A DNA stretch of 64,000 nucleotides from an uncultured Acidimicrobiia bacterium (GTDB lineage: Bacteria > Actinomycetota > Acidimicrobiia > Spongiisociales > ZC4RG35): positions 9,288-73,287 of the forward strand of contig CAWIXU010000004.1 in the NCBI GenBank assembly GCA_963840175.1, in the 5' to 3' direction. This document shows, piece by piece, positions 1 through 53,673 of this stretch; the first letter of the stretch is position 1, and each line of letters opens with the position of its first letter. The translations under genes were made by a program, and so were the position numbers. The notes under the pieces are model-generated. The model saw only the letters and a list, made by a program, of their open reading frames with translations. It searched no databases and was not told where the DNA came from.

Positions 1-34
1 ACTCGACATCTCGATTGACAATGCACCCGGCACC

Positions 35-400
35 GTGATCATCGCTATGACCCAGGCCGGCAACTCTGGTACGCCTGGTCTGTTGGATACAGGTGACATG
101 ATCCTCATCTACTTCTCTGAGGATGTCGTTGTCGCTCCCGGTGCCACGATCCAGCTTCTCGACCCTGACGGAACCACCGCCACGATCACATGTGGCGTCG
201 AGGCGACTTGCGCCTCCGGTCCTGCCGACCAACTGTTGATCACGATTACGGTTGCACTGCCCACCTCCGGCGGGACCACGCCCGGCATCGAGAATCAAGC
301 CGAGATAACAGCGGTAGGCGGCATCACCGCCTCTGACAACGGCGCTGCGGTCAACACTGCGGATTCGAGCGTTTTCGGCCGCACATTCTTCGACTTCTAG
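35..400 (+). CDS. C-terminal fragment of a secreted/surface protein with Ig-like beta-sandwich repeats; 5-prime end is outside the window
   Basis: ORF 35..400 continues from the window start. T/G/A-rich beta-strand repeats (ATITCGVEATCASGPADQLLITITVALPTSGGTTPG) resemble bacterial Ig-like surface domains. Confidence 0.35.
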   Translation: MIIAMTQAGNSGTPGLLDTGDMILIYFSEDVVVAPGATIQLLDPDGTTATITCGVEATCASGPADQLLITITVALPTSGGTTPGIENQAEITAVGGITASDNGAAVNTADSSVFGRTFFDF

Positions 401-441
401 CAGTTGACTCCAACGGGGAACGTGAGCGTCCCCGGCAACGT

Positions 442-3255
442 TTGACACCCATAGTGTCGAGGAAAATTTCGTTTGGGTTGGTGGTCGTTCTGATGGGCCT
501 TCTTGCGTCGCCGGCACAAGCTCATCCGGTTCCGATCGACACCTCGAGCGTCGTGCCCGGCGACCACCCCCAATGCGGGGTTCACCGACATTGGAACCTT
601 CGACGCCACTACTCGGACCGCCATCAACTGCCTGGCGGCCTTCGGGATCGCGCAGGGCACCACTGCTGCGACCTATTCGCCCAACGCCAACGTCGCCCGC
701 TGGCAGATGGCGCTCTTTCTCATTCGTCAGGCCGAGGACCATGGCCTGACCGTACCGGCGCCGGTCGATCAGGGTTTCACTGATATCGGCGGGCAGGCAG
801 CGGCGACGCAGAGACGCGATCAATCAGGTCGCGCAGATGGGGATCAGCAGCGGGACGACTTCGACCACCTTTTCGCCCAACGACACTGTTACTCGCTGGC
901 AGATGGCGCTTTTCCTCTATCGACTCGCCGTTCAGGCCGGGGTGACGGTCACCGACGATCCAACCAGCGATTCCTTTAGCGACATCGGCGGCTACGGCAG
1001 CGAGATTCAAACCGCGATCAACTTCCTCGCGGACGGGCACATCGCGCTCGGAACCAGCGAAGGAATCTTCTCGGGCAACGTAAATGTCACCCGCTGGCAG
1101 ATGGCTCTGTTCATCACCCGGGTGCTGGCGGCCGACGGCATCACGCAGTCGTGAGAGCGTATCATGCGCCGTTTGCTCATCGTTTCGGCAGTTCTTGCGC
1201 TGATTGCGGGCTGATGGCACTGCCCGCCGGAGCGTTGGTTTCGGAGGCCTGTCCTTCCAACCTGCCCGCCGGAGCGCTTCGGTGACCTGGCCGGTTTGAG
1301 CACGGATGCTCTGGATGCCATCGATTGCGTTGCCCATTACAAGATCGCCGCAGGGCACCTCGGCGACGACATTCAGCCCCAATTCTTCTGTGCTTCGCTG
1401 GCAGATGGCCCTGTTCCTCACCAGAACGGTGACGGCTCTGGGAGTCGCCCTTCCCAACGGAGCCGGCCAGGGGTTCACCGACATCGGATCTATGCCGGCG
1501 GCGACCCAGACCGCCATCAATCAGATCCGCCAACTCGGAATCAGCCTGGGGACCTCCGCTACCTCCTTCAATCCGTTGGGCGTGGTGCCTCGCTGGCAAA
1601 TGGCTCTGTTCCTGAGCCGGCTCCTCTCAAGCGGTCGGGGTCTCGCTTCCCAACGGCGCCAGCCAGGGCTTCACCGACATCTCGGCCATGCCGGTCGGCG
1701 ACGCAGGTCGCGATCAACCAACTTCGCCAGCTCGGCGTCGCGCTGGGGACAACCGCAACCAGACCTTCTCGCCGTTCAGCGACGTCTTGCGCTGGCAGAT
1801 GGCGCTCTTCCTGGCCCGGTCGACCGAAACCGCGGGTGGCCTTCCGTTCCGATTGGCGGCGGCGCTGCCAGTCGACCACTCCTCCGACCTCGGGCACTGT
1901 CCCCTTGACAGTCACCGTCCGCAATCCCGACGGAAGCCTGGCCAGCGAACCGGCGAGTGGACGTGTTCGTGGCGGCATCGCTCGACAGCAACGGGCGCTG
2001 CGTGCTCGACAACGATGCTCATGTCAACGGAGGCGATGCCGGCTACCAACAGCAACTGCGTGCTCGACAACAATGATCCGCTCACCAATGGCAGCGGTGT
2101 CGTTACGGTCAACCTCACCCACGATGCGACTCAGGAAGTCGACACGATTTACTCCTGGACCGGCGAGGTCGGTGAAACGTTCGATTTGCAGGACGTCCGA
2201 GGCGAAGCGGCGGTGCAGCTCACCTGGGGTGCGGCTCCAACCGGCCTGACCATTCCAGCAAACGTGAGCGCCGGATTTGCTACGTCAGCGCGCGGTCAGG
2301 GCCCAACTGATCGGGCCCGGGGGCGCGGCAGTGACCCTGTCGGGTCAGAACATCAGGTTCACGGTGCAGCGCGGCAACCAGACGATTCTCACCCAGACGG
2401 TGATGACGGGAGCCGACGGAAGCGCCACTCTGACCTATGTCGGTCCGGCCGATCCTTCGGGAGCAGACGACGCTGCGGTCATCGACAACGTCACGGCGTT
2501 CTGGGACAAGGACCGGGACAACGTCGACGACGGCGCGGCCGAGTTCGACGACAGCGGCACCGTTACTTGGGACGATCTGCTTGCCCCCGGTTACGACCGC
2601 CTCTCTCAGCCAGAGTTCCTTGACGCAATCTGCTCGGCGAGTTCGCTTCGATCTCGGTCACCGTCCGCGACAAGTTCAGTCAGCCGATCGCCAACGCCGA
2701 CGTGACGTTCCAAACCGGACAGGCCGGTCCGACCGTCGCCACCACCAACGCCTCTGGAGTGGCCACTTTCCAGTACACGGTCGTTGGCACGGGCTTGGCG
2801 GACTCCGTCGACGCCAGCGTGGATCTCAATCGAGATGGCGACACCAACGATCCCGGTGACCTGGGCTTTGGTGGCGTCACCAACCTCATTCACTACTGGG
2901 TCGCGACCGCGCCGACGCTGGCCGGGATTGACCGTCGTTCGATGTGATTGCGATCAATGCCGGCGCCAACACGGTCGACGTCGTCCAGATCGGCACCGCC
3001 AACTACTACCGGCTCACCTACGACGCGAATGACCAGTTCAATGTCAACGGGGGTGGCTCGGAGAGCCTGGACCAGTTCGAGTCGGCATTGGTCGGTATGC
3101 TGCTTCCGGATCTCGACGGTCCGGGAGGCCAGGAGCTGATCGACCAATCCCTACTCCACACCTGCCGGCGCCGCCAGCGCGTTCCTGCTGAATACCTAGA
3201 GCACGCTCTGGCTAGCGCCTCGAGCGATTTTTGGGACGCGGAGCCGTCGCCGTAG
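442..3255 (+). CDS. Large cell-surface protein with signal peptide, multiple SLH domains and bacterial Ig-like (Big) domains; reading frame interrupted by many frameshifts
   Basis: Signal peptide KISFGLVVVLMGLLASPAQA at 442. Repeated SLH signature FTDIG..AIN.LA.LGI..GTS.TTFSPN..VTRWQMALFL.R in ORFs 503..979, 837..1154, 1306..1908 and 1688..2623. Ig-like segments in 2277..2705, 2702..2947 and 2944..3255. All pieces are consecutive on the same strand in alternating frames. Confidence 0.6.
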
Positions 3256-4292
3256 GGGCTCGGGATGTCTCCGAGGTCGCTCCCATCCGACTTCGAGCAG
3301 GCGGCGCGCCTCGGCGCCGATCCCGGCACCGGCCGCGACTCGGACCGCGAACGTGCCCATGACCTCGGGGCGTTCGGTCGAGTTGCGGACCACCACCAAG
3401 GGTCGTTTCAAAACCGACACCTCTTCGGCGATCCCTCCCGAATCTGAAATCATCAACGCCGCCTCGGCCTCGAGAGCCAAGAAAGTCGCGATAGCCGATC
3501 GGTTCAACGACCATGAGCTTGTGCGAGCAGAGGCTCCGAGGCCGAACTCCTCGGCCCGGGCGACCGAGCGAGGATGCAACGGCAGCAGGACCGGCAGTGG
3601 CAGCGAGGCGAGCTCGATTCAGAATGGTCGAGTACGTGTCTCGCGTCGTCGACATTCTCGGGTCGATGAAAGGTCGAGAGGATGAAGCGGCCGCTTCCAC
3701 GCCGATACCGAGCCAGAATTTCTCCTACGATCCGTGGGAGCAAGGCGGCGACCGCTTCGACCACCGTGTTGCCTGTCAACGCCACCCGTCCGCCGCGATC
3801 CCCTCGGCGTGCGAGGTTGTCGACCGAAGTTGGCGTCGGGGCGCAACAGAGGTTGCTCAGGTGGTCGGTGACCACCCGGTTGTGCTCCTCGGGCATCCCC
3901 CAGTCGTGGCTCCGCAGCCCCGCCTCGATATGACAGAGGAAGACCGAGCGGGCGTTGGCGGCGAGGGCTCCGGCCGTCACCGAGTTGGTATCCCCTTGAA
4001 CGAGGACGGCACGAGGCTGCTGCTCGGCGAATAGTTCGTCGAGTGAAGCGATGGCCGAACCGATCTGTTGGCCGCGGCTGATCCCGCCGACTTCGAGGAA
4101 GGTGTCAGGGGTTGGGAGGCCGAGGTCGCGGAAGAAGACCTCAGAGAGGTTGGGGTCGTAGTGCTGGCCGGTATGGACGACGAAGGCGGCGTCGCCCAGC
4201 AGATGAATGATGTGGGAGAGCTTGACGATCTCGGGCCGGGTACCCAGCACGACCGCGATTGACTTGGGTGGGAATCCGTACTGGTTGGTCAT
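3196..4292 (-). CDS. wecB: UDP-N-acetylglucosamine 2-epimerase (non-hydrolysing), frameshifted near 3580-3660
   Basis: N-terminal part in ORF 3504..4292 (IAVVLGTRPEIVKL...HTGQHYDPNLS...LVQGDTNSV). C-terminal part in ORF 3196..3579 (ISDSGGIAEEVSVLKRPLVVVRNSTERPE). The two pieces are colinear on the minus strand. Confidence 0.85.
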
Positions 4293-4389
4293 AACCTCGG
4301 CCGGGCATGCTACGGGCTCTCCTCCTTGTTCTTGAGCTGGCCCTCATCGCCCTCATCGCCTACAACCTGCGTTGTCGCTCTGCTTTGGA

Positions 4390-5170
4390 TGGAGAAATCC
4401 CGTGACGAGGGCCAGCGGCAGTCGCGCAGCCACCGCTTCGTCATCGTGATCCCCGCTTACAACGAGGAGCGCGTCGTTGTCGCCCGGCCGGTCGCCGATC
4501 TGACACCACAACTAAGGGAAGGTGACGAGTTGTGGGTGCTCGCCGACCGATGCACCGACGACACGGCCGAGGTGGCGCAGGCGGCCGGAGCGCGCGTCGA
4601 CCGAACGCTCCGAGCGGGCCCGACGGAAAAGGCACCGGCACTGGCATGGTTCGTTGCCAAGCGACCGCTAGTTAGCGACGAGGCGCTCGTCGTGATCGAC
4701 GCCGACAATCGGGTCCCCGGCAAGCTCCTCGATCGGTTCGGCGCCGAACTGACCGACGGGCACTCGGTGCTGCAGGCCTACCTCGATGTGGCCAACCCCG
4801 ACGAGTCGGCGTTGGCGACCGCCTCGGCACTCTCGTATTGGGCTTCGAACCGCATGGTCCAGCTGGCGCGGGCCAACCTGGGTTGGACAGCCGATCTCGG
4901 CGGCACCGGCATGTGTCTGACTTCTCGAGGCGCTGAACGCACGCGGGCGGATTCGGGACATCGTTGGTCGAGGACCAGGACCTCGGAGTTCGCTGCTTTC
5001 TCGCCGGACACCCGGTCCGTTGGCTGCACGACGTTCGAATCGCCGATGAGAAACCTCCCACGGCCACCGTCGCTGTACGCCAACGGTCACGCTGGACAAG
5101 TGGACGTCGTCAGGTCGCTCGCCGTTGGTTGGAGAAGGTTGTCAGCCGAGCGACAGCCGGCGTCGCTTGA
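4390..5170 (+). CDS. Family 2 glycosyltransferase (GT-A fold), frameshifted near 5000
   Basis: ORF 4326..5477 contains FVIVIPAYNEE...VIDADN motifs. It continues in frame 4964..5170 (DQDLGVRCFLAG...RSRWTSG). Confidence 0.65.
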
Positions 5171-5458
5171 TCTCGCGCTTGCGTCTGGTGCAACCTTCGC
5201 GGATGGGGATGGCGTTGCTCAGCGCCGCGCTGGCCGTGGCCTCGGCTCTCGGCGCGTCCTCTGCTTGCCCTGGCCGTTGTGGACGGCGGTTGCGCTGGTC
5301 CAGTTGCTCGCCCCGATCCCGTTTCTGATCCGCGACCGGGTGCCGTCTCGCTATCTGAGGAAATATCCGCTGCTGGCGTTGCTCCCACTGCTCAAGATTC
5401 CGGGCACGCTTCGTCGCAACCGGGAGTGGTATCACACGCCCCACGGGTTATCGGACGG

Positions 5459-6375
5459 TTATCCGACTGGGCCCTGACGGCCCGGGGCGAGCGGAGTAGC
5501 CCGCGAACCAAGCCCGACGCCGTAACTCAGGTGCATGATCGCGATTGACCCAATACCTCGAGCAGCCGTCCCCGACTCGCCGAGGGCGAGCACCACGATC
5601 CAGACGACGATCAGGAGAAGCAGCGGCCACCAAATCGTGGTGAGCAGGCCGAAGGCGACCGCGACGACCAGGCCGAGAACCAGGGCTAGCGGAGCCAGCG
5701 GTCGCCATGACGGGAATTCGCCGTTGAGATAGAGCATGTCGGCCTTGCCCAGTCCGTATCGGTAGAACTGGCGCCACAGAGCTGCCGGTGTGGACCGGGG
5801 TCGATAGGTCGTACGGATACTAGGATCGATGAGGATCCGTCCTCCACGTTGGCGAAGTCGATAGAAGAAGTCGGCATCCTCGGCGACACGAGACGGCAGT
5901 GATCTCATCCCGCCGTTGGCGAGGAAAGTCTGCCCGGGTCATGGTTCCGAGATAGACGGTGTCACCTTCGGTTGGCTCCTCGGTGTGATGAAACGGCGCT
6001 GGTCCGATTCCGAACTTTCGAGCGGTAGGCCGCCGCGACCGCCCGGCCAAAAGCGTTGTCGCCTTGCGGACGCATCGGACCGCCGACCGCTGCGGCTCCC
6101 GAAGCGAGGAGTGCTTGCACCGAACGAGTTACGTAAGTCAGGGCCGTAGGTGGTGTGAGCATCGGCTCGGATCAAGACGTCGGCTGCGGTGTTGTCCGCG
6201 GCGAGGTTGAGCGCGTGCGATTGCAGGCGTCGGGGATTGTCGACGACGCGCAACCTTGGTAGGCGAACCAGCCAGCGGGCAAGATGTTCGGGAGTGGCAT
6301 CGGTGGAACCGCCGTCGGCGACAACGAGTTCCCACTCCCCGGCGTAGTCCTGTTCCTCAATGCTCTGCGAGGCAT
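5459..6375 (-). CDS. Family 2 glycosyltransferase on the minus strand, frameshifted
   Basis: C-terminal part in ORF 5459..5908 (EDADFFYRLRQRGGRI, then a TM helix). N-terminal part in ORF 5939..6253 (DAHTTYGPD...). Confidence 0.55.
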
Positions 6376-6450
6376 TCGTCGATACTCCCGGCCTCGTTGA
6401 AGACCGGAAGCAACACAGCGACCGAGGGCAGTTGATTACGTTCTATCGCA

Positions 6451-7802
6451 ATGACGGATTCGGCCTGGCGCCAGCGGTTGTTTCTGGCAATGGTGGCGGT
6501 GCTCCCGCTTCATACCGTTTATCTAAGCGCCTGGATTTCGTGGAAGCCGTTCATGGTCCTCCTGGCCGTCCTGGCCCTGTGGGACCTGGGCGACGGCATT
6601 CGGCTCCGGCAGTGGCCATGGCACAAGCGAATCACGCTCGCGTTCCTTCCCTTGATGGTGGCGGTTGCGATCGGGTTCCCAGGTCCTGAGCTATCGCGAA
6701 CGATTCATCCGGCTCGCCTTAGCGCTTGTCGTCGGGTTCGGGGTGCTGGCAGTTACCGAGCGACGACTGCGCGGCGTCAGGAATGGGAGCGCGCACCCTA
6801 CGGGTCATCTTCTGGTCCGCGGCCGCCATGGCGGTGACCGGCCTGATCTTCTCGGTGCTGCTTCTCGGCCTCGGGGGGGACGAAGGAATCGACTACCTCA
6901 CAGGGTCGCGCGGTTACGACCTTCCTCTCCTCGACAAAATTGGCAAGCCCGCCTATCTCTTGTCGGGTTTCCTCGCGCTTTCCAACTGGCATCAGGACCC
7001 GGGCTATGGAGCCGCTTGGGCGGTCCTCTGGGCGACATTGGCCCTCATCGCTTCCCTCCGCGGCCTCGGAACCAAAAGTCCTCTGATCGACGGAGCGATC
7101 ATCGGTGTTCTTTGGTCCGCAGTGGTGATGGGATTCTCCCGCACCGGGTGGGTGGCGCTGGCCGTGTCGTTGGTTCTCGTGGCCTGGAAGGTGACACGGC
7201 GAGGATTGGTCAAACGGATCGTCGCTGCAACCGTTGCCCTGATCTTGTCGATGGGGCTTCTCTTCGTCGCTGATGTCGAGAATGTCGGGGGGGAGCTGCC
7301 ACTTCAGTTCGCCTTTCGGCTCCGTCAGGGCTGGGACCTCCTGGCATCGATCACCGGGCTGTTCGAGTCATCCGCAGCCTTCGAGGACCAGTTCCAGCCA
7401 TCCGAGCAACGGGCCGACGTCTGGCCGGAGTACTGGCAACTGTTCCTCGACCACCCGGTCACCGGGGTGGGCTTCGGGGTTGGCTGGGAAACCAACTCCA
7501 TCGGCCAGGAACCGCACAACTTGTTTCTCGAGCTCGGAGCAGAAACCGGGATCATCGGTCTCGTCGCTTTTGCGTTGTTGTTGGGCTTGATCATTCGCGC
7601 CGGCAGCGGAGTTCTCGGGGCGGTGGCGCTGACCGTGTCGTTCTTGCCTGCGTTCACCCAGACAGTGCTCTTCGAACCAACCTGGTGGTTCGCCGCCGGC
7701 CTGTTCTTGGCCGCGGGAGGGAAGTTCGAGGATGCCGCGGAGATGCCTGTAGAGTCGTCTGACGAGTCAGGGGTTGTCACCCCAAAACAAGCTGCTGCCT
7801 AG
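6451..7802 (+). CDS. O-antigen ligase/polymerase family membrane protein (Wzy_C domain), frameshift near 6800
   Basis: ORF 6726..7802 has about 10 TM segments and the Wzy_C-like motif HNLFLELGAETGIIGL. The N-terminal TM segments are in ORF 6451..6837. Confidence 0.65.
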
Positions 7803-7849
7803 GGTTTTGGCGCGCCTTGCGTCTGCCTGGAAAGCTGGAAGGAGCGATT

Positions 7850-9727
7850 TTGCGCTCGCCAATCAGACAACTCCTCGCTGTGATTTTGGCCTTCGGGCTT
7901 CTCGGCGCGAACCTGCCCGTCGCCCACGCGCAGACGACCGATCCGACGTTCACCGTCACCGGATCGGGATGGGGTCACATGGTGGGAATGTCCCAATACG
8001 GAGCGAGGGCGCTCGCCGCGAATGGATCTTCGGCTGCCGATATCACCGGCTTCTATTACGCCGGAACCACCGTGCGTCAAACCACGGACGTCGTTTCCAA
8101 CTTCATGGTCACCGATCCCGATCCGCTCTGGATCGGACTGTTGCAGAACCGGTCGACCTTCAACTTCCGCGTCGACGGCGCCGGACCGGTCGGCCTTTGC
8201 AAAGCCAACGACGGCGAGGGCGAATGTCCCACCCAATTCGCCCTCTCGGGAGAAACCTGGGAGTTCCGCGCGTTGGGCGGCGGTGCCTGCCAGTACTTCA
8301 AAGCCGGGGTGGCAGTTGGCAATCCCGGAACCTGTCGCGGGGCCCTGACCTGGGACTTTGGCACGGGAACGAAGATCTTCTCACCCGATAACGGGCGGAC
8401 ATATGCCCGGGGCATCATCCGCTTCCGTCCGGCCGGAGCCGGATTCCATGTGGTTCTCGAAATCAACATGGAGGGATATCTCTATGGGCTGGGGGAGATG
8501 CCCTCGAGCTGGCCGATGGCGGCGATGCAGGCCCAGGCGATCGCGGCGCGCACCTACGCCTTGCGACAGGCATTGCGATACGGGCCGGAAGAGACGCTTG
8601 ACGCCTCCCGGCAGGCGACCTGTTGGTGTCAGCTGGTCTCCACGGTGGCCGATCAGGCGTACGTGGGTTGGGGCAAGGAGGTGGAGTCGCAAGGAAACCG
8701 GTGGGTCGAGGCAGTCAACACCAGTGCCGGCCAAGTGATCACCCACCCCCAAGCACCGGACTCGACAGTGATCGTCGCCTACTACGCCTCCTCCACGGGA
8801 GGCCACACCGATAGGAATGTCGAGGGCTTGGGCCACACCAATCCCTTGCCTTATCTGGTGGCGACGCCCGACCCCTGGTCCGTGTCAGCCGCCGCGGCTA
8901 ACCCTTTCGCGACCTGGACGCGCACGCTGACCGCAGCCGAGATCGCCACGGCCTTCGGGCTGGAATCAGTCACAGGCGTGGAGGTGACCCGACGCAATGG
9001 CTCCGGTACGGTGGCAGAGGTCACCATTGCCGGCACGCTTGGCGGACAGTCGACACTTCTTGTGCGCAGCGGCCGTAGTTTTCGTGATGCGTTTGCGATG
9101 CGTTCCACTGCCTACGCGATCAGCGGCGGGAGCGGGATCGGGACCGCCATCTGTGACGGCGTACCGCCCCCGGCGGGGTTCACCGATGTCGCGGTCGGCA
9201 ACATCCATTCCGAGGGAATCAACTGCCTGGCCGCCCTGGAGATCACCACCGGGACCACCGCCACCACGTTCTCGCCCGCCCAGGCGGTGAGCAGGTGGCA
9301 GATGGCAGTCTTCTTGATCCGCACCGCTCACGCCCTCGGGATTGCGGTGCCGGCACCCGTGCCGCAGGGATTCACGGACCTAACCGGCATGGCTCTCACC
9401 ACCGTCGATGCGATCAACCAGCTCAAACAACTCGGGGTCACCTCGGGAACGACCCCGACGACCTTTGCCCCCAACGCCAGCGTGTCCCGCTGGCAAATGG
9501 CGCATTTCCTCACCCGTCTTTTCGCGATCGCCGGCGGCGCACCGGCCGGAGCTGGCGCAAGCTTCAGTGATCTCAACGGCCTGAGCCCCGAGACGATCGC
9601 GGCGATTGGCCAGCTGGCCGGTCTGGGGATCACGCTCGGGACGGGTCCCGGGACCTTCGGCCCCAACGACGTGGTCACCCGCGAACAGATGGCGACCTTC
9701 CTCACCCGCCTGATCCGGCTCCTTTAG
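7850..9727 (+). CDS. SpoIID/LytB-domain protein (amidase enhancer family) with three C-terminal SLH domains
   Basis: Intact ORF 7817..9727. RBS GGAAGGA at 7837..7843, then in-frame TTG at 7850. Signal peptide. SpoIID motif GSGWGHMVGMSQYGA. Three SLH repeats at the C-terminus (TFSPAQAVSRWQMAVFL; TFAPNASVSRWQMAHFL; TFGPNDVVTREQMATFL). Confidence 0.85.
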   Translation: MRSPIRQLLAVILAFGLLGANLPVAHAQTTDPTFTVTGSGWGHMVGMSQYGARALAANGSSAADITGFYYAGTTVRQTTDVVSNFMVTDPDPLWIGLLQNRSTFNFRVDGAGPVGLCKANDGEGECPTQFALSGETWEFRALGGGACQYFKAGVAVGNPGTCRGALTWDFGTGTKIFSPDNGRTYARGIIRFRPAGAGFHVVLEINMEGYLYGLGEMPSSWPMAAMQAQAIAARTYALRQALRYGPEETLDASRQATCWCQLVSTVADQAYVGWGKEVESQGNRWVEAVNTSAGQVITHPQAPDSTVIVAYYASSTGGHTDRNVEGLGHTNPLPYLVATPDPWSVSAAAANPFATWTRTLTAAEIATAFGLESVTGVEVTRRNGSGTVAEVTIAGTLGGQSTLLVRSGRSFRDAFAMRSTAYAISGGSGIGTAICDGVPPPAGFTDVAVGNIHSEGINCLAALEITTGTTATTFSPAQAVSRWQMAVFLIRTAHALGIAVPAPVPQGFTDLTGMALTTVDAINQLKQLGVTSGTTPTTFAPNASVSRWQMAHFLTRLFAIAGGAPAGAGASFSDLNGLSPETIAAIGQLAGLGITLGTGPGTFGPNDVVTREQMATFLTRLIRLL

Positions 9728-9775
9728 TCCTATTTCCTCTGTAGGGAGAGTTGGGCGCGGCCGATTGATGACAGG

Positions 9776-10995
9776 ATGGCGGTTGTTGGCAATGGACCCG
9801 AAACAGAGTGCAGGCGTGACGTCGAAGAGCTGGACTCACCGCGGGGCTTCAAGGCACCGGGCACTGCTCGCATGATCGCCGGCTCGCTGGTCGGCGCGGT
9901 GGCGGCCTACCTCTTCCAGGTGCGTCGGCGTGCGCAGCGTCTGGGGACGGAAGCCTTCGCGCCGATCGCCGTCCTGTGGACCGTCTTCTTCATCGTCGCC
10001 ACTGTGATCGTCTGATTCCTCTGGAGCATTTCGTGACCCGCGAGGTGGGGCGAGGACGACGGGTGCTGCGTTCGGATCGAGCGGCGATGATCCTCTGATC
10101 CTCCTCTCACCGGCAACGCTGATCGCGGCTGTTCGTATTATCTGATGCGGGACCGCCTCTTTGCCGGCGAGTCGATCTTTGCGTTCCAGGCCTTCCTTCT
10201 GACGATCGGGTTTGGATTGATGCAGGTCGGCAAAGGCATCCTGGCCGGACATCGGCAGTTTGCTCGTTACGGGGCGCGTCCTGGGCTCGAAGGAATCATA
10301 CGGCTCTTGGCGGCCGTCATCTTCCTCGCGCTGTCGGCCAGCGCCGTCTCGCTCGGTTGGGCCATGGTGGCCGCGCCTCTCGGCGATCTTCTTCGTCACG
10401 ACCCTGGAGCCACGATCGGGAGACCGTCGCCGGAGTCGTCGCGACGCCGGCCCGCGGGTTCTTGTCTTCTTACGTTGCGGGCGCGGCAGCTTCCCAGCTT
10501 CTACTGGCCGGAGCCCCGCTCGCGGTAGCAGCTCTCGGTGGCAACGAGCATCTGCGTAGCGTCATGTTCGTCACCTTCACTCTGTATCGGGCGCCGCTGA
10601 CGCTGATTTACAACCTGCAGGGCCGAGTTCTTTCACTCCTGGTCCGCCTCGAAAACGGCGACGCGATTCGACGTCTGGATCGACCAGGGTGGCGACCTTC
10701 GGAGTCGGCATGATCGCGGTCGCCGGTCTGGTCGGATGGTTGGTCGGGCCGGCCGTCGTCGAGCTGCTTTACGGGCAGGATGCTCGTCCGATCGCACTCG
10801 TCGCAGCTTGTGCGGCGGCCGGCGTTATCGCCGCCTCGATCACGCAGATCCTTTCGCAGGCGCTGGTGGCGGGAGGATCAACCGGCGAGTTGGCCGGCGC
10901 GTGGGTCGGCGGCCTCGTCGTCGGGCTGGGGACGATGGCGCTTCTGGAACGGGCCTCCCGACGTGCGAGTGGCGGTCGGCTTCCTCGCCGGCGGA
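9776..10995 (+). CDS. Polysaccharide biosynthesis protein / Wzx-like flippase, fragmented by frameshifts
   Basis: TM-rich fragments in ORFs 9776..10015, 10145..10528, 10357..10713 and 10689..11045 (LYGQDARPIALVAACAAAGVIAASITQILSQALVAGG). These resemble the C-terminal half of MATE/Wzx-type flippases and sit inside a glycan-biosynthesis cluster. Confidence 0.4.
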
Positions 10996-11450
10996 GGTTG
11001 TTCGCCCTGGCTTTGGCGACTTGGCGCATTCTCCGTCCGCGTTGACATCCACTCGATATGCGCTCGCCGCAATGCCGGCGACATTCTCTTGATGGCCCCG
11101 TCATCGAGGGGTTGAATTCGGTCCCGAGCGATGATCACGTTCCCGTCGAGGTGAACGAGCCCGGCTGATAGCAAAGTCGAGAGGTGCAAGGGCCGCCGTA
11201 GGGAGTTGCCGCGGAAACCTGCTTGCACGATGCGCAACAGGTCAGCGATCGCTTCTACGCCCAGAACTGCGGACCAAAATCTCCGGACGTACAGATCGGT
11301 TGGGGCGAACCCGGACTCGCTTTTCATGATGGAGACGAGATAGAGCGGACGGCGGGCGACTGTCGGTCGGAGCGCCTCGTCCGGAAGCGGTGCGGCCAAT
11401 GTTGCATAGGGAGGACATGGCAACGGCTTCCGGGACGAGACACTCCTCAC
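10878..11450 (-). CDS. Hypothetical protein, possible winged-helix DNA-binding protein
   Basis: ORF 10878..11450, with likely start at MKSESGF. No family recognised. It lies next to DUF559 cassette copy 1. Confidence 0.3.
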   Translation of the reverse strand: MRSVSSRKPLPCPPYATLAAPLPDEALRPTVARRPLYLVSIMKSESGFAPTDLYVRRFWSAVLGVEAIADLLRIVQAGFRGNSLRRPLHLSTLLSAGLVHLDGNVIIARDRIQPLDDGAIKRMSPALRRAHIEWMSTRTENAPSRQSQGEQPPPARKPTATRTSGGPFQKRHRPQPDDEAADPRAGQLAG

Positions 11451-11569
11451 GCTTACGAAGTATCAAGAACCGTTAACTACCGTCAAGTCCCTTAGAAACC
11501 TTCTTTTCGCGACTTCTGGATGCTTCAGCTTCTCCCCGGAGCGGGGATAGCGCGCGATCGCGTTTTCTT

Positions 11570-12122
11570 CCCCCGGAGGGGGGAGTACCCGAGCGAAGCG
11601 AGGGGGTAGGGGGCGTTTTCTCGAGACCCAGGAGCTCAACCCTCTTCTATTCCCCTCGAAAAGGAACTACTCGTTCAACATGGCCCGACCCCGTCACACC
11701 GACCTCGCCGCGAACGAGAGCACGGGAGCTTCAGAAACGGGATGACCGTCTCAGAGGCGCGGGTGTGGCAGGTGATCCGCGGCGGACAATGCGGCGCCCG
11801 GTTCCGTCGGCAGGTTCCGATCGGACGGTGGATCGTCGACTTCGCCAGTCTGCAAGCCACGACTGGTGCTCGAAATCGATGACGAGTCACACGACTGGCG
11901 TGACGAAACGGAACGCATCGAGTACATCGAAGCGGAGGGTTTTCCGATTTTGCGGCTGACAAACAAATACGTCGCCGAGGACCTCGGCGCCGTTCAGCGA
12001 ACGGTGAGCTTGTGGGTGGCGGAGCTCAAGGCAGGGCGAAGGCCGGAGTAGGGATCGCGTCTGGAGAGAACGCCCCCCTCGTCTGCCTCCTTCGTCGGCA
12101 GACACTCCCCCCTCCGGGGGAG
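11570..12122 (+). mobile_element. DUF559 cassette copy 1 (~550 bp) bounded by 17-bp terminal inverted repeats CCCCCGGAGGGGGGAGT; degraded copy
   Basis: Left TIR at 11570..11586 and right TIR (reverse complement) at 12104..12120. About 80% nucleotide identity to 41564..42114 over the whole length, including the flanks ...GAGCGAAGCG...CTCAACCCTCTTCTAT...AAAAGGAACTA and ...AACGCCCCCCTCGTCTGCCTCCTTCGTCGGCAG. Confidence 0.6.
11680..12051 (+). pseudogene. DUF559 (Vsr-like endonuclease fold) gene with at least two frameshifts
   Basis: Aligns to the intact paralog 41675..42043. One extra A near 11715 and one extra base near 11845 break the frame. ORFs 11765..11959 and 11866..12051 carry the pieces (...LEIDDESHDWRDETERIEYIEAEGFPILRLTN). 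Confidence 0.65.
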
Positions 12123-12175
12123 AAACGGGAGATCCCCTCCGGGGGGAGAAATTCAGGTCTGGGGATGAAACGGAT

Positions 12176-14752
12176 TTAGCCCGAGGGTGGCGCAGGGGCG
12201 GCGGCCTGGCCGACGGTGATGTACACCGGGCTCTTGTACGTCATCGCCGTTCCCGGCCCGGGGGTCTGAGCGAGAACGACATCGACCTGGGCGGGGTCGG
12301 TGACCGGCACGTAGGTCGCGTACACGTCGACCCAGGTCCCAGTTGAGTAGATGAATCGGTTGATCGTTCGGTAGGCCTCGCTGATCGGTAGGCCGATCAC
12401 ACTCGGCAACGCGCCGCCAGGGACCTGGCCGTTCGAGACATATATACGAATCGGAAGCCCGGCTTCGACTTCGGCTCCCGAACCGAGCGACTGGAAAACG
12501 ACGGTGCCCGCGGCCTGCAGCGAGGGAATCGGGGTTCACGTTGGGGATGAGTTTGGCCTCGGTCGCCAACGACACTGCCTCGGCTTCGGTCTTGCCGATG
12601 AGATAGGGAACGATGGTGGTCGGGGGCTTGAGGAACGGCTGGAGCTCCTCTTCGGTCAGGCGTGGAAAGTCGAGTGCTTCGACATCGGTCAGCACCATCC
12701 GCATGAACTCGGCCCAGATCGGAGCCGGGACCGAACCACCGAAGACCCGTTCGTAATACTCACCGTGGATGCGAACGTTGCGCAGGGGAACCTGATCTCG
12801 CTCGTACCCCACCCAGACCGCAGTCGTGTACTGCGGAACGAAACCGACGTACCAGGCGTCGCGATAGTCCTGGTGGGTGCCGGTCTTTCCACCCTGGGGC
12901 CGACCGATGGCGGCTCGCTCGGCCGTTCCTTCCGCGGTCGGCACTTCGAGCAGCGGGATTCGCGCTGCCTCGGCGATCGGCGCGGCGATCACCTGCTGCT
13001 GCTCGACCTGGTGCTGGTAGAGCACCTGGCCGTCCTCGTCGAGGATGCGGTCGATCAGATAGGGCTCGGCGTAGAGGCCGTTGGTGGCGAAGGACGAATA
13101 GGCGGAAGCCATCTCCAAGGTCGAAACTGCACCGGTCCCCAGCACGATCGAAGGCACCGGCTGGCAGCGGTGAGGTGATCCCCATTCGGTGCGCGGTCTC
13201 CACTACCTTCTCCGGCCCTACCTGCAAGGAGAGCTGGGCGTAGATCACATTGATCGATCGAGAGGTGGCTTCCTGGAGGGTGATGCGGCCGGCGCTGGCC
13301 CCGGCATTCGACACGGTCCACTTGTTGGGATCGGGCCCATCCGAGCAGATCGTCGGGCAGGTCAGGATGCGAGGGCTCGACCCGTCATATGTGTTGCCGA
13401 GCGTGATGCCGTTCTCGAGCGCCGCGACCAGACCAAACGGCTTGAACGCCGAACCGGGGTTACGTCGACCCTGGACGGCGAGGTCGAACTGGCTCTGTTC
13501 GAAGGGGAGCCCCGAAGCCATCACCTCGACCGCCCCGGTCTGGTTGTTGACCATCGTCAAAGCTCCAGTTGGTGAGCAAGAGTTGGCCTCGGCGTACGAG
13601 GTCAGGTTCTCGATCGGCTCGCTGGGAAAGATTCTCGTGCAGAGTTGCAGGTTCTCTTCGTAGGAATAGAAGGGGAGCCACTCGAGCAGCATCGCATTCG
13701 CCGCTTGCTGCAAATTGAGATCGATGGTCGTTTCGATGGTCAGGCCCCCGCCACCGACGCAGTTGACATCGTCGGATGGGCAACCGAAGACCGAGATGGC
13801 GCGCTCCTCCAGGGTCTGGCCGAGAAAATCGAACTCGTGACGCGAGAGGTCGGACAGCTGCCGCATCACCTCGGTGCGCACGTGTTCCGCCTCGCCGCGG
13901 AACTCGATGTGCTCGAGCACCCCAAGGGGTCTTGACTTGGCGATCTCCGCCTGAGATTCAGTGGTCCAGTCCTGTTCGAGCATGAGGTCGATGACGTCGT
14001 TGCGCCGATCGAGAACTACCTCTGGATTGTCGCCGAGGGTCGTAGAGCGAAGGGTTGCGGATGAGCACCGCGAGGGTGGCGGCCTGATCCAGGGTCAGCT
14101 CGGACATCTCGCGGTGGAAGAACTCACGGGCCGCGGTCTTGACCCCGTAGGCGCCGGCACCGAAGTAGACCGAGTTCATGTAGAACTCGAGGATCTTGTC
14201 CTTCGAGTGGCGACGCTCGAGCTCGGCGGCGATAAACGCCTCTTTGATCTTCCGCTCGATCGTGACCTCGTCGCCGACGAAGACGTTTTTCACGACCTGC
14301 TGGGTGATGGTCGAACCGCCGCGGGTGTTGCCGCTGCGGAAGTTGTCGAGGGCAGCCGAGGCGATGGCCGGGAACGAGACGCCCTGATGGTCGTAGAAGC
14401 CTTTGTCCTCCGCCGCCAGGATCGCGTGTTGAAGGAGCAACGGCACCTCGTCGATCGGGGCCGGCTCGGAGTTGCGCCCGTCGTGGAGCTCGCCGATGAT
14501 TTCTCCGCTTGCCCATATCCGCGACACCCGTGACAGGTCGGGGAGGGTCAGAGTCAACGTCTCGACTTCAGGGACGTACTCGGCTCTTACCTTGTCGATG
14601 GCGGCATAGGCGGAGTTGGCGCCGAGGAAAGTGAAGAGGCCAACCCAGGTGCTGCCCAGGAGCGCGATCGACAGCAGTCCCGCCAGAGCCGGGAACCAGC
14701 GGCCACGACGCTCGCGCGCTTCCAGTTGGTGGATGAGGGATCGATTGGCCAT
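12176..14752 (-). CDS. Class A penicillin-binding protein with C-terminal PASTA domain, multiple frameshifts
   Basis: Transglycosylase domain (GT51) in ORF 13958..14752 (EDKGFYDHQGVS, GGSTITQQ). Transpeptidase motifs SAFKPF (SxxK), SNA and KTGT in ORFs 12760..13983 and 12153..13157. PASTA domain in ORF 12176..12409. Confidence 0.85.
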
Positions 14753-14826
14753 AAATCAACCGGAGCCAAAGTCGAATGGATAGTCCCCGGTAGCATCAAA
14801 GGTTACCTCTCGACGTCAGGTATTCC

Positions 14827-16377
14827 TTGCGCACTCCCAGCGGAATCGAAATCGAGGTTGTCTACGACCAACCCGCCGATCCCGACAAAATCGGCAGTCC
14901 GGGTGAGTATCCGTTCACCCGCGGCCCTCATCCCACGATGTATCGCGGACGGCTCTGGACGATGCGTCAGTACGCCGGCTACGGCACCGCCGACGCCACC
15001 AATCGCCGGTTTCGTGAGCTCCTCGCCGCCGGGCAGACCGGCCTATCGACTGCCTTCGACCTGCCGACGCAGATGGGACTCGACAGCGACCACCCGTTGG
15101 CCGAGGGAGAGGTCGGCAAGGTCGGAGTGGCGATCGACACCCTCGACGACATGCGCCGTCTCTTTCGGGAGATCCCTCTCTCCGAGGTGTCCACCTCGAT
15201 GACGATCAACGCCACGGCTCCGATCCTGCTCCTGCTCTATCAGCTGGTGGCGGAGGAGCAAGGCGTCGATGGCAAGGAAATCCGGGGCACCGTGCAGAAC
15301 GACATCCTCAAGGAGTACGTCGCCCGCGGCACCTACATCTACCCGCCGGGGCCGTCGATGCGGATCGTCACCGACGTCTTCTCGTACGCGGCCAAGGAGC
15401 TCCCGGCCTTCAACCCGATTTCGATCTCCGGCTATCACATCCGCGAAGCCGGCTCCACCGCCGCCCAGGAACTCGCGTTCACGATCGCCCATGGCCTCGC
15501 CTACGTGGATGCCGCCCTGAAAGCCGGCCTCGACATCGACGACTTTGCTCCCCGGCTCTCATTCTTCTGGAACAGCCACAACCTCTTCTTCGAGGAGGTA
15601 GCCAAGTTCCGTGCAGCCCGCCGATTGTGGGCCGACCTGATGCGGAATCGCTTCGGAGCCAAAGACGAGCGGTCGTGGGCGATGCGGTTCCACACCCAGA
15701 CCGCCGGTTCGACTCTGACCGCGCAGCAGACCGGAAACAACGTGGTGCGCACGACCGTCCAGGCCATGGCCGCCATCCTCGGAGGGACGCAATCGCTGCA
15801 CACCAACTCTTTCGACGAGGCCGTTGGACTGCCGACCGACGAATCGGCCCGTCTCGCCTTGCGGACCCAGCAGGTACTCGCCCACGAATCCGGCCTCGCG
15901 GATGACAGTCGATCCGCTGGCCGGCTCCTACTTCGTCGAGGAGCTCACCAACCAGCTCGAAGCCTCGGCCCGCTCACTGCTCGACGCAGATCGAAAGGAT
16001 GGGGGGCGCGGTGGCGGCAATCGAGAGCGGGGTGGACGCAACGTCAGATCGAAGAGGCGGCCTACGAAGAGGCCCGTCGCCAGGAGTCAGGCGAATCGAT
16101 CGTGCTCGGGGTGAACCGATATGTAGTCGGCGATGAGGCTGAGATTCCGGCGTTGAGAATCGACCCTGAGCTGGAGCGCGAGCAAAAGGCGCGCCTCGGC
16201 CAATGGAAGGCAGAGCGCTCGGCAACTGAAGTCGAATCCGCCCTCGACGCCGTCACCATCGCAGCCGGAGACGGGACCAATTTGCTTTATCCCATGAAGG
16301 AAGCGCTTGTCGCCGGTGCAACCTTGGGCGAGTGTTCCGAGGCGATGCGGGCCGTGTTCGGGAGCCACCGACCGTGA
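14827..16377 (+). CDS. Methylmalonyl-CoA mutase family protein, catalytic (beta/alpha)8 domain only with no B12-binding domain; frameshift near 15900
   Basis: ORF 14827..16377 (RGPHPTMYRGRLWTMRQYAGYGTADATNRRFRELLAAGQTGLSTAFDLPTQMG...). The C-terminus ...LYPMKEALVAGATLGECSEAMRAVFG ends at 16377, so the protein is about 520 aa. Confidence 0.8.
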   Translation: MRTPSGIEIEVVYDQPADPDKIGSPGEYPFTRGPHPTMYRGRLWTMRQYAGYGTADATNRRFRELLAAGQTGLSTAFDLPTQMGLDSDHPLAEGEVGKVGVAIDTLDDMRRLFREIPLSEVSTSMTINATAPILLLLYQLVAEEQGVDGKEIRGTVQNDILKEYVARGTYIYPPGPSMRIVTDVFSYAAKELPAFNPISISGYHIREAGSTAAQELAFTIAHGLAYVDAALKAGLDIDDFAPRLSFFWNSHNLFFEEVAKFRAARRLWADLMRNRFGAKDERSWAMRFHTQTAGSTLTAQQTGNNVVRTTVQAMAAILGGTQSLHTNSFDEAVGLPTDESARLALRTQQVLAHESGLADDSRSAGRLLLRRGAHQPARSLGPLTARRRSKGWGARWRQSRAGWTQRQIEEAAYEEARRQESGESIVLGVNRYVVGDEAEIPALRIDPELEREQKARLGQWKAERSATEVESALDAVTIAAGDGTNLLYPMKEALVAGATLGECSEAMRAVFGSHRP

Positions 16378-17744
16378 CCACCGACCCCAAGCGAACCCGC
16401 TTTCTGATTATCGGCGCCGGCCCGGCCGGCACCGCCGCCGCCACCAACGCGGCCGCGCTAGGCGCAAAGGTCACTCTGGTCGAGGACCAGATCGTCGGTG
16501 GCGCGGCCCATCTTTGGGATTGCATTCCCTCCAAGACCATGATCGCCACCGCCGTGCGGATCGACTCGATGCGCAACGCCCCCCGGCTCGGGGTGACCGC
16601 CGCGCCCGGGCAGCGTCGACAGCGCCCAACTAGCCGAGCGAATCTCCATCATCTCCGGCGACATCAACCGCAGCTGGGTCGACCTCCTCAGCAGCCAGGC
16701 GGTCGAGATCATCAACGGGAAGGCCCGGCTGACCGGTCCAATCAGGCGATCGTCGAGGGAGATGACGGCGAACAGCACCGATCGAGCTTTGACGTCTGCC
16801 TGCTCTCGACCGGCTCGGCTCCCGCGTGTCCCGGCCTGGGCAGTCATCGACGGAGAACGAATCCTGACGACTCGCGACGCCTACGACCTCGAGCGAGGTG
16901 CCCGAACAGTTGATCGTGATCGGTTCGGGGGTCACCGGAGTCGAGTTCGTGCACATCTTCGAGTCGCTCGGTTCGGACGTCACCCTGGTGGTCAGCCGTC
17001 AGCAGATCCTTCCCCACCGCGATCCCGAGGTCGCAGCGGTGCTGGAAGAGAACTTCCTCGAAAGCGGGAGTGCGTCTGGTCATCGGCGCTCGCGCGATCG
17101 GGATTGATCGAACCGAAGACGGAGTCAGGGTTCGCTGCGACGACGGGCGGGTGGTCGAAGGCACCCACGCCTTGCTGGCGATCGGCTCGGTCCCGAACAC
17201 CGACTGATCTCGGACTGGGCGAGCTCGGCATCAAGGAGAGCGGCGGTTTCATCCAGGTCGACGAGCATCAGCGGACCTCGGTTCCCCACATCTATGCCGC
17301 AGGAGACTGCACCGGCCAGTTGCTGCTTTCCTCGGTGGCTGCAGTGCAGGGCCGGAAGATCGCCCGTCACGCGATGGGCTTGCCGGTCACACCGATCGAC
17401 TACTCCAAGGTGAGCCAGGCGATTTTCACTGAGCCCGAGATCGCCTCGGTCGGCCTTGAGGAGGCCGAGCTGGCCGCGGGAGGTCGCAAGGTGCGCACAA
17501 CCAAAGTGCCCTTTGCCGCCAACGCTCGGGCGGTGCTGCAAGGAAATCCCCGCGGCTTCGTCAAAGTCATGTCGGATCCCGCCACCGGAGTCGTCCTGGG
17601 CGGGAGCATCGTCGGCCACCGCGCCTCGGAGCTGATCGGGATCATGGCCCTCGCGGTCAAAGCGCGGGTCACGGTCAACGTCCTCGTCGACACCCTGATG
17701 GTGCACCCCTCCTCTCGGAAGCGATCAGCGAAGCAGCGGAGTGA
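16374..17744 (+). CDS. Pyridine nucleotide-disulfide oxidoreductase, LpdA-like (single-Cys CIPSK motif like M. tuberculosis Rv3303c NAD(P)H quinone reductase); frameshifted
   Basis: GTG at 16374 overlaps the upstream stop. FAD-binding motif IIGAGPAGTAAA. Active-site region GGAAHLWDCIPSK has one Cys instead of CxxxxC. NAD-binding VIGSGVTGVEF in ORF 16898..17107. Dimerisation domain in ORF 16762..17784, ending ...SEAISEAAE at 17744. Confidence 0.7.
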
Positions 17745-17772
17745 GACGTCAGATCAGACGTCAGACATCAGA
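17743..17772. repeat. Heptad repeat arm (GACGTCA GATCA GACGTCA GACATCA) immediately after the lpdA-like stop
   Basis: Tandem GAC(G/A)TCA heptamers seen in the sequence. Inverted copy at 18623..18656 and paired copies at 45427..45505. Confidence 0.7.
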
Positions 17773-17896
17773 ATGTCGTTGTAGCCAACGTTCGTGAACT
17801 GCCGACACACGGTTCCAGAGCGCATCTACGGCGCTCGGAGGTCCGTCGGGGCGAATGGCGAAGACATCTGCCAAGGCGGCGAACCAGTCGCCCGGA

Positions 17897-18656
17897 TTAT
17901 CCAGCGTGGTTGAAGTCGACTCGTGCTCTCGACGTCGGGTGAGGACGCATCCCCGGAGAATGTCGGTCCCGTTCTCGAGTCGAAGCTGGGCGGTGACGAC
18001 TCCGGCAAAGCTCGATTCGGGGGACGTCGACAGGTGCTTGTGCCGTTCGCCGACACGCGTCCATCTCCACCTGGCCTGTCCGAAAGCTCATGCCCGAGAA
18101 GGAGCCGGTGGAATCGTGGGTGAAGTGCCAATCGCCAACCCCATCATCGGTCTCCTCGAAGCGAAAGGTCATTGGGTTCTGGGCATAAGTGCCCGAGATC
18201 ATTGGAAGCGGGTCGTATAGCCCGTCGCCAAGTCCCGCGTCCACCCACCAATCTCCATTCGGGTTCTCAGCCGTTGGGAGGTCATGGGCAACAAGCACCA
18301 GGTGATTCGACAACCACTTGACGTCGGGACCCTCGGGTCCATGTACGCCGCCGATGTGGCGGGTCACGTGATAGCCCAGCGAACCCAACACGAGGGATAA
18401 GGCTCCGTTCATCTGATAGCAGTAGCCGCCGCGGCTGTGGTTGGCGATTCGGTCCAGCGAGGCGGTCGGGTCGATGCTCCAGTTCTCGGACATATGAATC
18501 CACACGGATTCGTAAGGCACCCGTTCGACCCAAGCCCGATGGAGCCGGCTGCAGTGCCTCCGCGGAGGGAGGCTCCACCTCGACCCCGATGCGTCCTAGC
18601 GCCCGAACGACGTCCGGCTCTATCTGATGTCTGAAATCTGATGTCTGATGTCTCAC
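17897..18656 (-). CDS. nat: Arylamine N-acetyltransferase, frameshift near 18480-18520
   Basis: ORF 17897..18520 has the catalytic-Cys motif HSRGGYCYQMNG and the downstream NAT fold. The N-terminal YxxRIG-type segment (VRALGRIGVEVEPPSAEALQ) is in the frame of ORF 18282..18794. Confidence 0.7.
18623..18656. repeat. Heptad repeat arm, inverted relative to 17743..17772 (TGATGTC TGAAATC TGATGTC TGATGTC)
   Basis: Reverse complement of the 17743 arm at about 85% identity. Overlaps the nat 5-prime end and the stop codon of the upstream lipoprotein gene. Confidence 0.7.
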
Positions 18657-26377: not shown

Positions 26378-26417
26378 CTTTTCCAAACGGGGCGGTATCG
26401 CAGGGGAGTCAATCGGA

Positions 26418-27681: not shown

Positions 27682-27730
27682 CGAACACATATCGGCGCTT
27701 GCCGGTCGCACCAGATCGGTAGCCCGGCCA

Positions 27731-29278: not shown

Positions 29279-29440
29279 TGTCACCCGCACAGCGTGCCTC
29301 CCGACCTCGCTGAGAAGCTTGGCAGTCTCGAGAGAGATTGCAGTCGAAGTTAGGCTGCTCCACAATGATCCGGTCCATGAGCAGTCCGCCGCTTTCGTCG
29401 GCCGCTCCTTCCTCTGGCACATCGCAGGCTGTCGCCCGCG

Positions 29441-34236: not shown

Positions 34237-34322
34237 AACGGCCGCCCAAGCGCACCAATCCAGGCCGGTCGCGGCAGCGAAAACCAGGTAGAAATCCGTC
34301 GTCCGATAGAATCCCCGCCTTC

Positions 34323-34535: not shown

Positions 34536-34665
34536 CCGGACCACCCTCCGGTACAACGCGCCGTTTCATCCCCTTGATCGTGGGCGTGGGTTGCGCTCTT
34601 GGCGATCCTCGCGGTGCTCAACCCCCGGCTCCTCCTCGACGGCCACCACGCCGTCGGGAGGCGAC

Positions 34666-41526: not shown

Positions 41527-41563
41527 GCCGAGGCCGGAAGACCAGAAGACCGTTTCTGTCTCT

Positions 41564-53650: not shown

Positions 53651-53673
53651 GGCTCGGCCGTTCTTCGTAATCG

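Follow-up and report, generated by a model that had tools for sequence, protein, structure and literature searches.

A cell-envelope locus with SLH-module proteins and Wzx/Wzy_C-type glycan genes in uncultured Acidimicrobiia

The DNA analyzed here, hereafter the window, is a 64-kb stretch (64,000 nucleotides) of contig CAWIXU010000004.1 from an uncultured Acidimicrobiia bacterium (assembly GCA_963840175.1). Its beginning, positions 1-11045, holds a cell-envelope locus. Genes for three predicted secreted proteins, each containing a triple SLH module, are interleaved with genes for WecB, two family-2 glycosyltransferases (GT2s), a Wzy_C-family membrane protein and a Wzx-type flippase candidate. 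The locus adjoins a gene for a class A penicillin-binding protein. The G+C content is 62-68% across the window.

The coding signal hops from one frame to another every few hundred bases over much of the window, as followed with a codon-usage Viterbi frame tracker. In a plain list of open reading frames (ORFs), the region 1-12.5 kb is broken into a series of 100-300-aa ORFs spread over the three forward frames. The tracked segments were translated, stitched across frames and then scanned against Pfam. The locus is composed of the following genes, the last of which belongs to the same conserved block and lies beyond the 1-11045 span.

442..1154, plus strand: SLH-A, a small, predicted secreted protein with a signal peptide and three SLH repeats (Pfam SLH 65 bits, stitched product)
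~1164..3199, plus strand: SLH-B, a predicted secreted protein that has three SLH repeats at the N-terminal end and, in its C-terminal part, an Ig-like (Big_1) domain
4292..~3210, minus strand: wecB, non-hydrolysing UDP-GlcNAc 2-epimerase (Epimerase_2 254 bits, stitched product)
4305..5477, plus strand: GT2a, membrane-anchored family-2 glycosyltransferase (Pfam Glyco_tranf_2_3 and Glycos_transf_2)
~6440..5459, minus strand: GT2b, family-2 glycosyltransferase with C-terminal membrane segments (Pfam Glyco_trans_2_3; tblastn)
6449..7802, plus strand: Wzy_C-family membrane protein of the O-antigen ligase, polymerase or O-oligosaccharyltransferase type (Wzy_C, PF04932, 72.2 bits against a cut-off of 31.7)
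7817..9727, plus strand: SpoIID-SLH, a SpoIID/LytB protein with a C-terminal triple SLH module (Pfam SpoIID; SLH 81.4 bits, three stretches)
9776..11045, plus strand: candidate flippase of the Wzx type, MOP superfamily (located by tblastn with the 417-aa protein of related locus L001, which is intact)
10878..11450, minus strand: conserved 189-aa protein of unknown function (190 aa in the ORF list, one frame; 64% identical to its L001 counterpart by tblastn)
12125..14752, minus strand: PBP1A, class A penicillin-binding protein with PASTA (L001 annotation Transgly/Transpeptidase/PASTA)

An earlier reading, made from the sequence alone, had named SLH, Ig-like, WecB, two GT2, Wzy_C and SpoIID-SLH families at the locus, and all of them are matched in Pfam after stitching. 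It had also described the genes as co-oriented, which does not hold, as wecB and GT2b lie on the minus strand.

Related loci, 46 in number (L001 and so on), were collected by a scan of species-representative genomes. The nearest relative, L003, belongs to the uncultured Acidimicrobiia metagenome-assembled genome (MAG) MFD09206.bin.1.94 and is ~92% identical in DNA to the window over positions 416-20064. The MAGs of its project were assembled from Nanopore reads alone with Flye and polished once with Medaka (PMC12313526); L004 and L001 are short-read MAGs. For the SpoIID-SLH protein, 697 homologs were found; the best are 91-64% identical, ~625 aa long and, by name, proteins of Acidimicrobiia MAGs. 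For SpoIID-SLH and the flippase alike, every one of the top matches is from an Acidimicrobiia MAG. These matches, together with the nearest genome at ~92% nucleotide identity, agree with the lineage that the sequence-only reading had guessed, a non-mycolate, deep-branching actinobacterial class.

The SLH-A, SLH-B and SpoIID-SLH proteins all exceed the Pfam SLH (PF00395) cut-off of 20.8 bits, with scores of 65, 24.5 and 81.4 bits, respectively. Nine SLH repeats occur in the window, and a profile built from those nine finds them only in these three proteins. The SLH module of SpoIID-SLH can be aligned end to end with that of Sap: residues 6-182 of its C-terminal region match residues 5-173 of the Sap structure 3PYW with E = 2e-7. 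This comparison, which had been proposed as a check on the repeats, supports their SLH identity. All nine repeats carry an Arg-containing xRWQ or TREQ sequence in the column of the TRAE, DRVS and TKAE motifs of Sap. Each repeat thus appears to retain the putative ligand-binding motif of the TRAE type.

SLH-A and SLH-B were previously taken for one SLH and Ig-like protein at 442..3255. The SLH and Big_1 domains are both present there, but they belong to two genes, SLH-A followed by SLH-B, which are separate ORFs in the relatives. The intact SLH-A ortholog of L003 (2516..3226) is 236 aa long and scores 68.3 bits for SLH. The SLH-A gene in the window carries two frame-breaking insertions, at ~547 and ~811; no stop remains after indel removal, and the ratio of nonsynonymous to synonymous substitution rates (dN/dS) is 0.145. 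The SLH-B protein measures roughly 680-750 aa. Its stitched product matches Pfam Big_1 with 39.5 bits. At least 14 frame-breaking indels interrupt the gene, and dN/dS is 0.046 for the C-terminal part. The SLH-B ortholog forms one open frame of 746 aa in L004 (stop to stop, with no start codon imposed) and contains one frame break in L003.

SpoIID-SLH is the sole large gene of positions 1-11045 that lies in a single frame, with a probable true start at 7850. Neither the 636-aa nor the 625-aa version of its product has an exact match on record. Its product matches the SpoIID structure PDB 4RWR with E = 1.5e-21 and conserves the catalytic core, and the L003 ortholog scores 145.9 bits against the TIGR02669 cut-off of 83.3. 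The protein is predicted to be a peptidoglycan-remodelling enzyme.

The SpoIID domain is circularly permuted with respect to Bacillus SpoIID (4RWR), involving residues 45-98 versus 216-431 of the protein. The GHxVGMSQYGA segment is N-terminal here, ahead of the catalytic core, and C-terminal in Bacillus. An N-terminal motif of the GHxVGMSQYGA type is common to the whole SpoIID-SLH homolog family.

The glycan genes are heavily frame-broken in the window. The wecB gene has about five frame-breaking indels and needs three frames; its L003 ortholog lies above the TIGR00236 equivalog cut-off (260.7 versus 210.15). GT2a forms an open 383-aa ORF, yet contains 13 frame-breaking indels relative to L003, with a dN/dS of 0.23. 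Its best NCBIfam match is EpsU, far under the cut-off of that family. GT2b has seven frame-breaking indels, and an apparent in-frame stop at 5939-5941 disappears after correction. The intact GT2b ortholog of L003 matches Glycos_transf_2. Two frame-breaking insertions, at ~6691 and ~6773, split the Wzy_C gene, which needs three frames. Comparison of the Wzy_C protein with PDB sequences gives no usable match, including to solved WaaL or PglL-type proteins.

The flippase gene needs three frames and contains at least two frame changes, and its pieces are 62-88% identical to the L001 ortholog. At E <= 1, the ortholog has no family match in Pfam or NCBIfam, and PF01943 is assigned to only one of the 120 flippase homologs listed. 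The family name given by JGI is 'O-antigen/teichoic acid export membrane protein'. An AlphaFold2 model of the L001 ortholog, built from a 47-sequence alignment, has a pLDDT of 89 and a pTM of 0.88. The best PDB match of the model is WzxE, the lipid III flippase (9G9P, TM-score 0.71), followed by MATE and MurJ. The model therefore supports the earlier description of the protein as Wzx-like at the level of the fold, despite the lack of a Pfam or NCBIfam match.

The 189-aa protein matches no Pfam or NCBIfam family. Its gene is always placed between the flippase gene and PBP1A in the relatives. In the window as in L001, it shares ~165 nt with the 3' end of the flippase gene, to which it is convergent. 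In L001, the 189-aa gene lies at 7310-7879 and the flippase gene at 6221-7474.

The gene order of the locus is conserved: (SLH-A and SLH-B), wecB (-), GT2a (+), GT2b (-), Wzy_C (+), SpoIID-SLH (+), Wzx (+), the 189-aa gene (-), PBP1A (-) and methylmalonyl-CoA mutase (MCM, +). This order is found in at least nine MAGs (L001, L003, L004, L014, L019, L021, L024, L028 and L040), which come from independent projects and in which SpoIID identity falls to ~53%. More distant relatives contain, between GT2b and SpoIID-SLH, genes for an ECF sigma factor, an M12-like metallopeptidase-SLH protein and an Amidase_2 (N-acetylmuramoyl-L-alanine amidase)-SLH protein. The extra genes are located as follows.

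L014: 3808-5013 and 5381-7126
L019: 4971-5573 and 8666-10771
L021: 6087-6767 and 6781-8502
L024: 5255-7069

A GH26-SLH protein is encoded upstream of the locus in L003. As further SLH fusions occur at the same place, the locus is a hot-spot for SLH-anchored exoproteins in the clade.

The frame breaks are not specific to the locus. Among the ten genes of positions 1-11045, only SpoIID-SLH and the 189-aa gene lie in one frame without frame-breaking indels; the other locus genes need 2-13 frame corrections each. SLH-A, wecB, both GT2 genes, Wzy_C and SpoIID-SLH are single intact ORFs in L003, L004 and L001. Compared with L003, the window contains 74 insertions of one or two bases and 22 deletions. 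With the indels taken out, no in-frame stop is left in any of the nine genes or partial genes that were tested in frame, and dN/dS lies at 0.05-0.23. The range is alike with or without indels, as seen for SpoIID-SLH (no indels, 0.06) and GT2a (13 indels, 0.23). Elsewhere in the window, SecA is split at ~46006, and its product, once joined, can be aligned with residues 31-537 of M. tuberculosis SecA1 without interruption. The carboxylase genes (20.1-23.3 kb), pmmA (37.9-39.2 kb) and sahH are also frame-broken. PBP1A is recovered as four tblastn segments of 74-88% identity in frames -1, -2, -3 and -1, with breaks at 12531, 13159 and 14023. Frame-breaking insertions occur over most of the window, with a far higher density at 0.4-7 and 16-42 kb than at 42-64 kb. 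They avoid homopolymers, as 13 of 64 inserted bases match a neighbouring base versus 45% expected, and in a test for methylation-like motifs no single 4-mer clearly stands out near the insertions. Since the genes have evolved under purifying selection, we conclude that the frame breaks are assembly errors and not gene decay.

Taken together, the window probably holds one version of an envelope locus that a clade of uncultured Acidimicrobiia from soil and sediment has kept, that would place SLH proteins on a polymer of the Wzx/Wzy_C type, and whose frame breaks are errors. WecB, supplying UDP-ManNAc, and the other sugar genes would build an undecaprenyl-linked, ManNAc-containing glycan at the cytoplasmic face of the membrane. 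Wzx would flip the glycan, and the Wzy_C protein would polymerise or ligate it. An LCP enzyme encoded elsewhere may then attach the glycan to peptidoglycan, and the SLH modules would hold the surface protein or proteins and the wall hydrolases non-covalently on that polymer. The glycan of this locus is thus a candidate for the SLH ligand. The position of the locus beside PBP1A hints at a connection with wall growth.

Several observations weigh against this interpretation. None of the coding segments of the 64-kb window matches the PS_pyruv_trans family (CsaB, PF04230), Glyco_tran_WecG (TagA), Glycos_transf_4 or Bac_transf (TagO/WecA-type). The Wzy_C protein is left without a subfamily assignment, with weak scores for TfpM (29 bits against a cut-off of 600) and RfaL (14 bits). 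In L002 and L008, Wzy_C, SpoIID-SLH and Wzx are kept, and a Polysacc_synt_2 dehydratase and a DegT aminotransferase encoded upstream replace wecB and GT2a. The sugar part of the locus is therefore variable, somewhat more in line with a variable surface glycan than with a conserved SLH ligand. With regard to the frame breaks, a 1.97-kb stretch at 7848-9819, including the SpoIID-SLH gene, has no indels relative to L003, while about one occurs per 190 nt elsewhere. The SpoIID-SLH protein is 98% identical to that of L003, and the DNA is ~92% identical elsewhere. As a guess, the indel-free stretch may be a conserved segment that draws extra read depth from co-occurring relatives.

The variability of the sugar genes also bears on a second explanation, which we regard as unlikely. 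The sugar genes may constitute an O-glycosylation cluster of the S-layer protein type instead of a wall-polymer pathway. WecB and the GT2s would make a lipid-linked glycan, Wzx would flip it, and Wzy_C would act as an O-oligosaccharyl:protein transferase onto the SLH proteins, with the SLH ligand made elsewhere. The sugar-nucleotide genes vary by lineage as Wzy_C and Wzx stay, which is typical of variable surface glycans, and candidate target proteins are encoded next door. S-layer glycosylation loci with Wzy_C-domain transferases are present elsewhere, in Paenibacillus and Geobacillus. The best NCBIfam match of the Wzy_C protein is indeed TfpM, an O-linking oligosaccharyltransferase, but the match falls as far below the cut-off as given above, and solved WaaL or PglL-type proteins are not matched in sequence.

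It is quite improbable that SLH modules are the general means by which the whole clade displays enzymes for degradation and wall remodelling (SpoIID, amidase, M12-like peptidase and GH26), along with a candidate S-layer protein, on a different ManNAc-containing ligand. The SLH hot-spot would then be physically coupled to the Wzx/Wzy_C glycan genes and PBP1A. A ligand made without a linked CsaB/TagA/TagO pathway would be a different and possibly non-pyruvylated polymer.

Another view, held by the sequence-only reading, is that the window contains a complete and self-contained module for synthesis and anchoring of an S-layer and a secondary cell wall polymer (SCWP) that is pyruvylated. The components that it named all exist, and the placement of wecB beside SLH genes matches the ManNAc need of the canonical ligand (PMC6030368). 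The canonical SCWP locus consists of csaB-tagA-tagO plus mnaA (PMC6030368), but MnaA/WecB, the UDP-GlcNAc 2-epimerase, is the only member of this set found in the window. TagO- and TagA-type families are also not among the annotated genes of L001 or L002. A rough and weak scan for CsaB-like motifs finds none in 680 kb of the window and related loci. A Pfam scan of the ORFs at 29.4-31.5 and 34.3-38 kb adds no new family; the stretches at 29.4-31.5 and 34.3-36.8 kb have no Pfam match and are frame-corrupted, so they could in principle hide something. As the initiating transferase, a TagA-type enzyme and CsaB are not found in the window, the locus is not self-sufficient, and these enzymes, if existing, are encoded elsewhere. 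Furthermore, SLH-B is at most a candidate S-layer protein. The remaining two components of the proposed module, an LCP-family transferase and ugd at about 25-27.7 kb, are present as families and at these positions:

~25136-26290, plus strand: LCP-family protein (LytR_cpsA_psr 98.4 bits, LytR_C; frame-broken)
~26300-27719, plus strand: ugd, UDP-glucose/GDP-mannose dehydrogenase family gene (UDPG_MGDP_dh 121 bits, with the Pfam UDPG_MGDP_dh match at 26.9-27.7 kb, and UDPG_MGDP_dh_C; frame-broken)

A specific tie of the two to the SLH locus is not supported. The two genes lie 14 kb away, inside a separate conserved block formed by fbiB/fbiA and pmmA, and PBP1A, methylmalonyl-CoA mutase, Lpd and carboxylase genes are located in between. 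In L001 and L002, no LCP gene is found within the 10 kb displayed on either side of the locus. A complete module in the window is thus very doubtful.

The weakest explanation, that the frame breaks are real and the locus and much of the window form a pseudogene field in a genome undergoing reductive decay, is hardly credible: the ~100 indels in 20 kb relative to L003 are uneven and spare SpoIID-SLH, and the insertions lie outside homopolymers, the usual sites of long-read errors, but the corrected genes contain no stops and show the same constraint with 0 and 13 indels, indispensable genes such as SecA and PBP1A are affected and rejoin cleanly or align in every frame piece, and the excess of insertions is opposite to the deletion bias of bacterial pseudogenes. 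The nearest relatives come from Nanopore-only assemblies with a single Medaka round (PMC12313526), and L003 has a few such breaks too. Real pseudogenisation was rejected because of the dN/dS values, because indel removal leaves no stops and because essential genes are affected.

The remaining features of the window are listed below.

1..400, plus strand: 3' end of an upstream ORF (35..400) of unknown family, without a Pfam match and outside the conserved locus
11569-12120 and 41563-42111: two copies of a ~550-nt element encoding DUF559
18054-20026, minus strand: gene between Lpd and the carboxylase genes, whose product combines a long N-terminal part without a known family with a C-terminal arylamine N-acetyltransferase domain (Acetyltransf_2)
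29381-31500, 31673-33511 and 34309-36843: second glycan-looking region, from fbiA to pmmA
53671-54024, minus strand: tmRNA gene
Also in the window: pmmA, a Trm112-like protein, SIS isomerase, AdoHcy hydrolase, and carboxyltransferase and biotin carboxylase genes
Also in the window: hpf, a response regulator, secA, prfB, ftsE, ftsX, an M23 peptidase and smpB

Positions 1-415 of the window have no counterpart upstream of the locus in L003. Downstream of ugd are the genes for F420 ligase (fbiB), CofD (fbiA) and a DUF5719 protein. A fragmented birA adjoins the carboxylase genes and is visible in the translations by eye only. The core synteny proposed earlier is thereby recovered for fbiA/fbiB, pmmA, accD/accA-birA and hpf-secA; a DUF3499 gene beside pmmA, which had been part of the proposal, was not found in the Pfam scan of window segments. 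The second glycan-looking region contains frame-broken ORFs without a Pfam match, the DUF5719 protein, a ~730-aa polytopic membrane protein without a family and, at 36.8-38.0 kb, a minus-strand GT2 gene. The two DUF559-encoding copies are in direct orientation, 30 kb apart and 81-95% identical. Copy 1 is absent at the same site in L001 and L003, so the element behaves like a small dispersed or mobile cassette. The tmRNA gene, just downstream of smpB, is the sole RNA gene detected in the window and encodes the tag peptide AEDNFALAA.

The individual families of the locus, SLH in actinobacteria and the SLH and CsaB pair in Candidatus Microthrix are known already, and public pipelines label the proteins correctly. 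SLH domains are widespread in Firmicutes, Cyanobacteria and Actinobacteria (PMC6030368). A phylum-wide survey describes the SLH/CsaB pair as kept in 'a few examples within Actinobacteria' (10.1101/2021.05.31.446380). In its supplementary sheet 1A, the acidimicrobiian Candidatus Microthrix parvicella has many SLH proteins, in a column that is filled only for genomes with SLH as well as CsaB; both are missing in Acidimicrobium ferrooxidans and Ilumatobacter coccineus (10.1101/2021.05.31.446380). A literature search for SLH with Acidimicrobiia or Acidimicrobiales returned no dedicated study and none on this locus. Studies of the cell envelope of uncultured soil Acidimicrobiia can take this concrete and conserved set of genes as their starting point. 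Uncorrected gene calls on this error-prone assembly would give a string of pseudogenes and truncated proteins, and any claim of a 'complete' or 'missing' pathway for this bin requires indel-corrected sequence first.

The locus can be compared with several known systems. SpoIID-SLH resembles Bacillus SpoIID (4RWR) in its catalytic core and in the conserved GHGVGMSQYGA segment. It differs in its C-terminal SLH anchor, in the permuted order of its segments and in its host, which is not known to sporulate.

In comparison with Wzx/Wzy glycan assembly, as for O-antigen and enterobacterial common antigen, the locus shares a MOP fold nearest to WzxE, a Wzy_C protein and ManNAc supply by WecB. Unlike these systems, no WecA/WbaP-type initiator or chain-length regulator is found, the flippase fails the Pfam and NCBIfam profiles, and the envelope is that of a monoderm. 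The SLH/CsaB system of Ca. Microthrix parvicella belongs to the same class of bacteria. The survey reports it as presence or absence only, with no locus, and the clade of the window consists of uncultured MAGs.

Further parallels are to the systems of Bacillus anthracis (Sap/EA1 and CsaB) and Paenibacillus alvei (SpaA/SlhA, with a csaB-tagA-tagO locus and mnaA), in which SLH proteins are displayed on pyruvylated SCWP. Those hosts are Bacillota, whereas the host here is an actinobacterium whose 64-kb window yields no csaB, tagA or tagO and contains polymer genes of the Wzx, Wzy_C and GT2 types. As in B. anthracis and P. alvei, the proteins of the locus contain three tandem SLH repeats, aligned with Sap over the full module and bearing a TRAE-like Arg motif. 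A UDP-GlcNAc 2-epimerase is likewise encoded beside the SLH genes, and several enzymes share the anchor.

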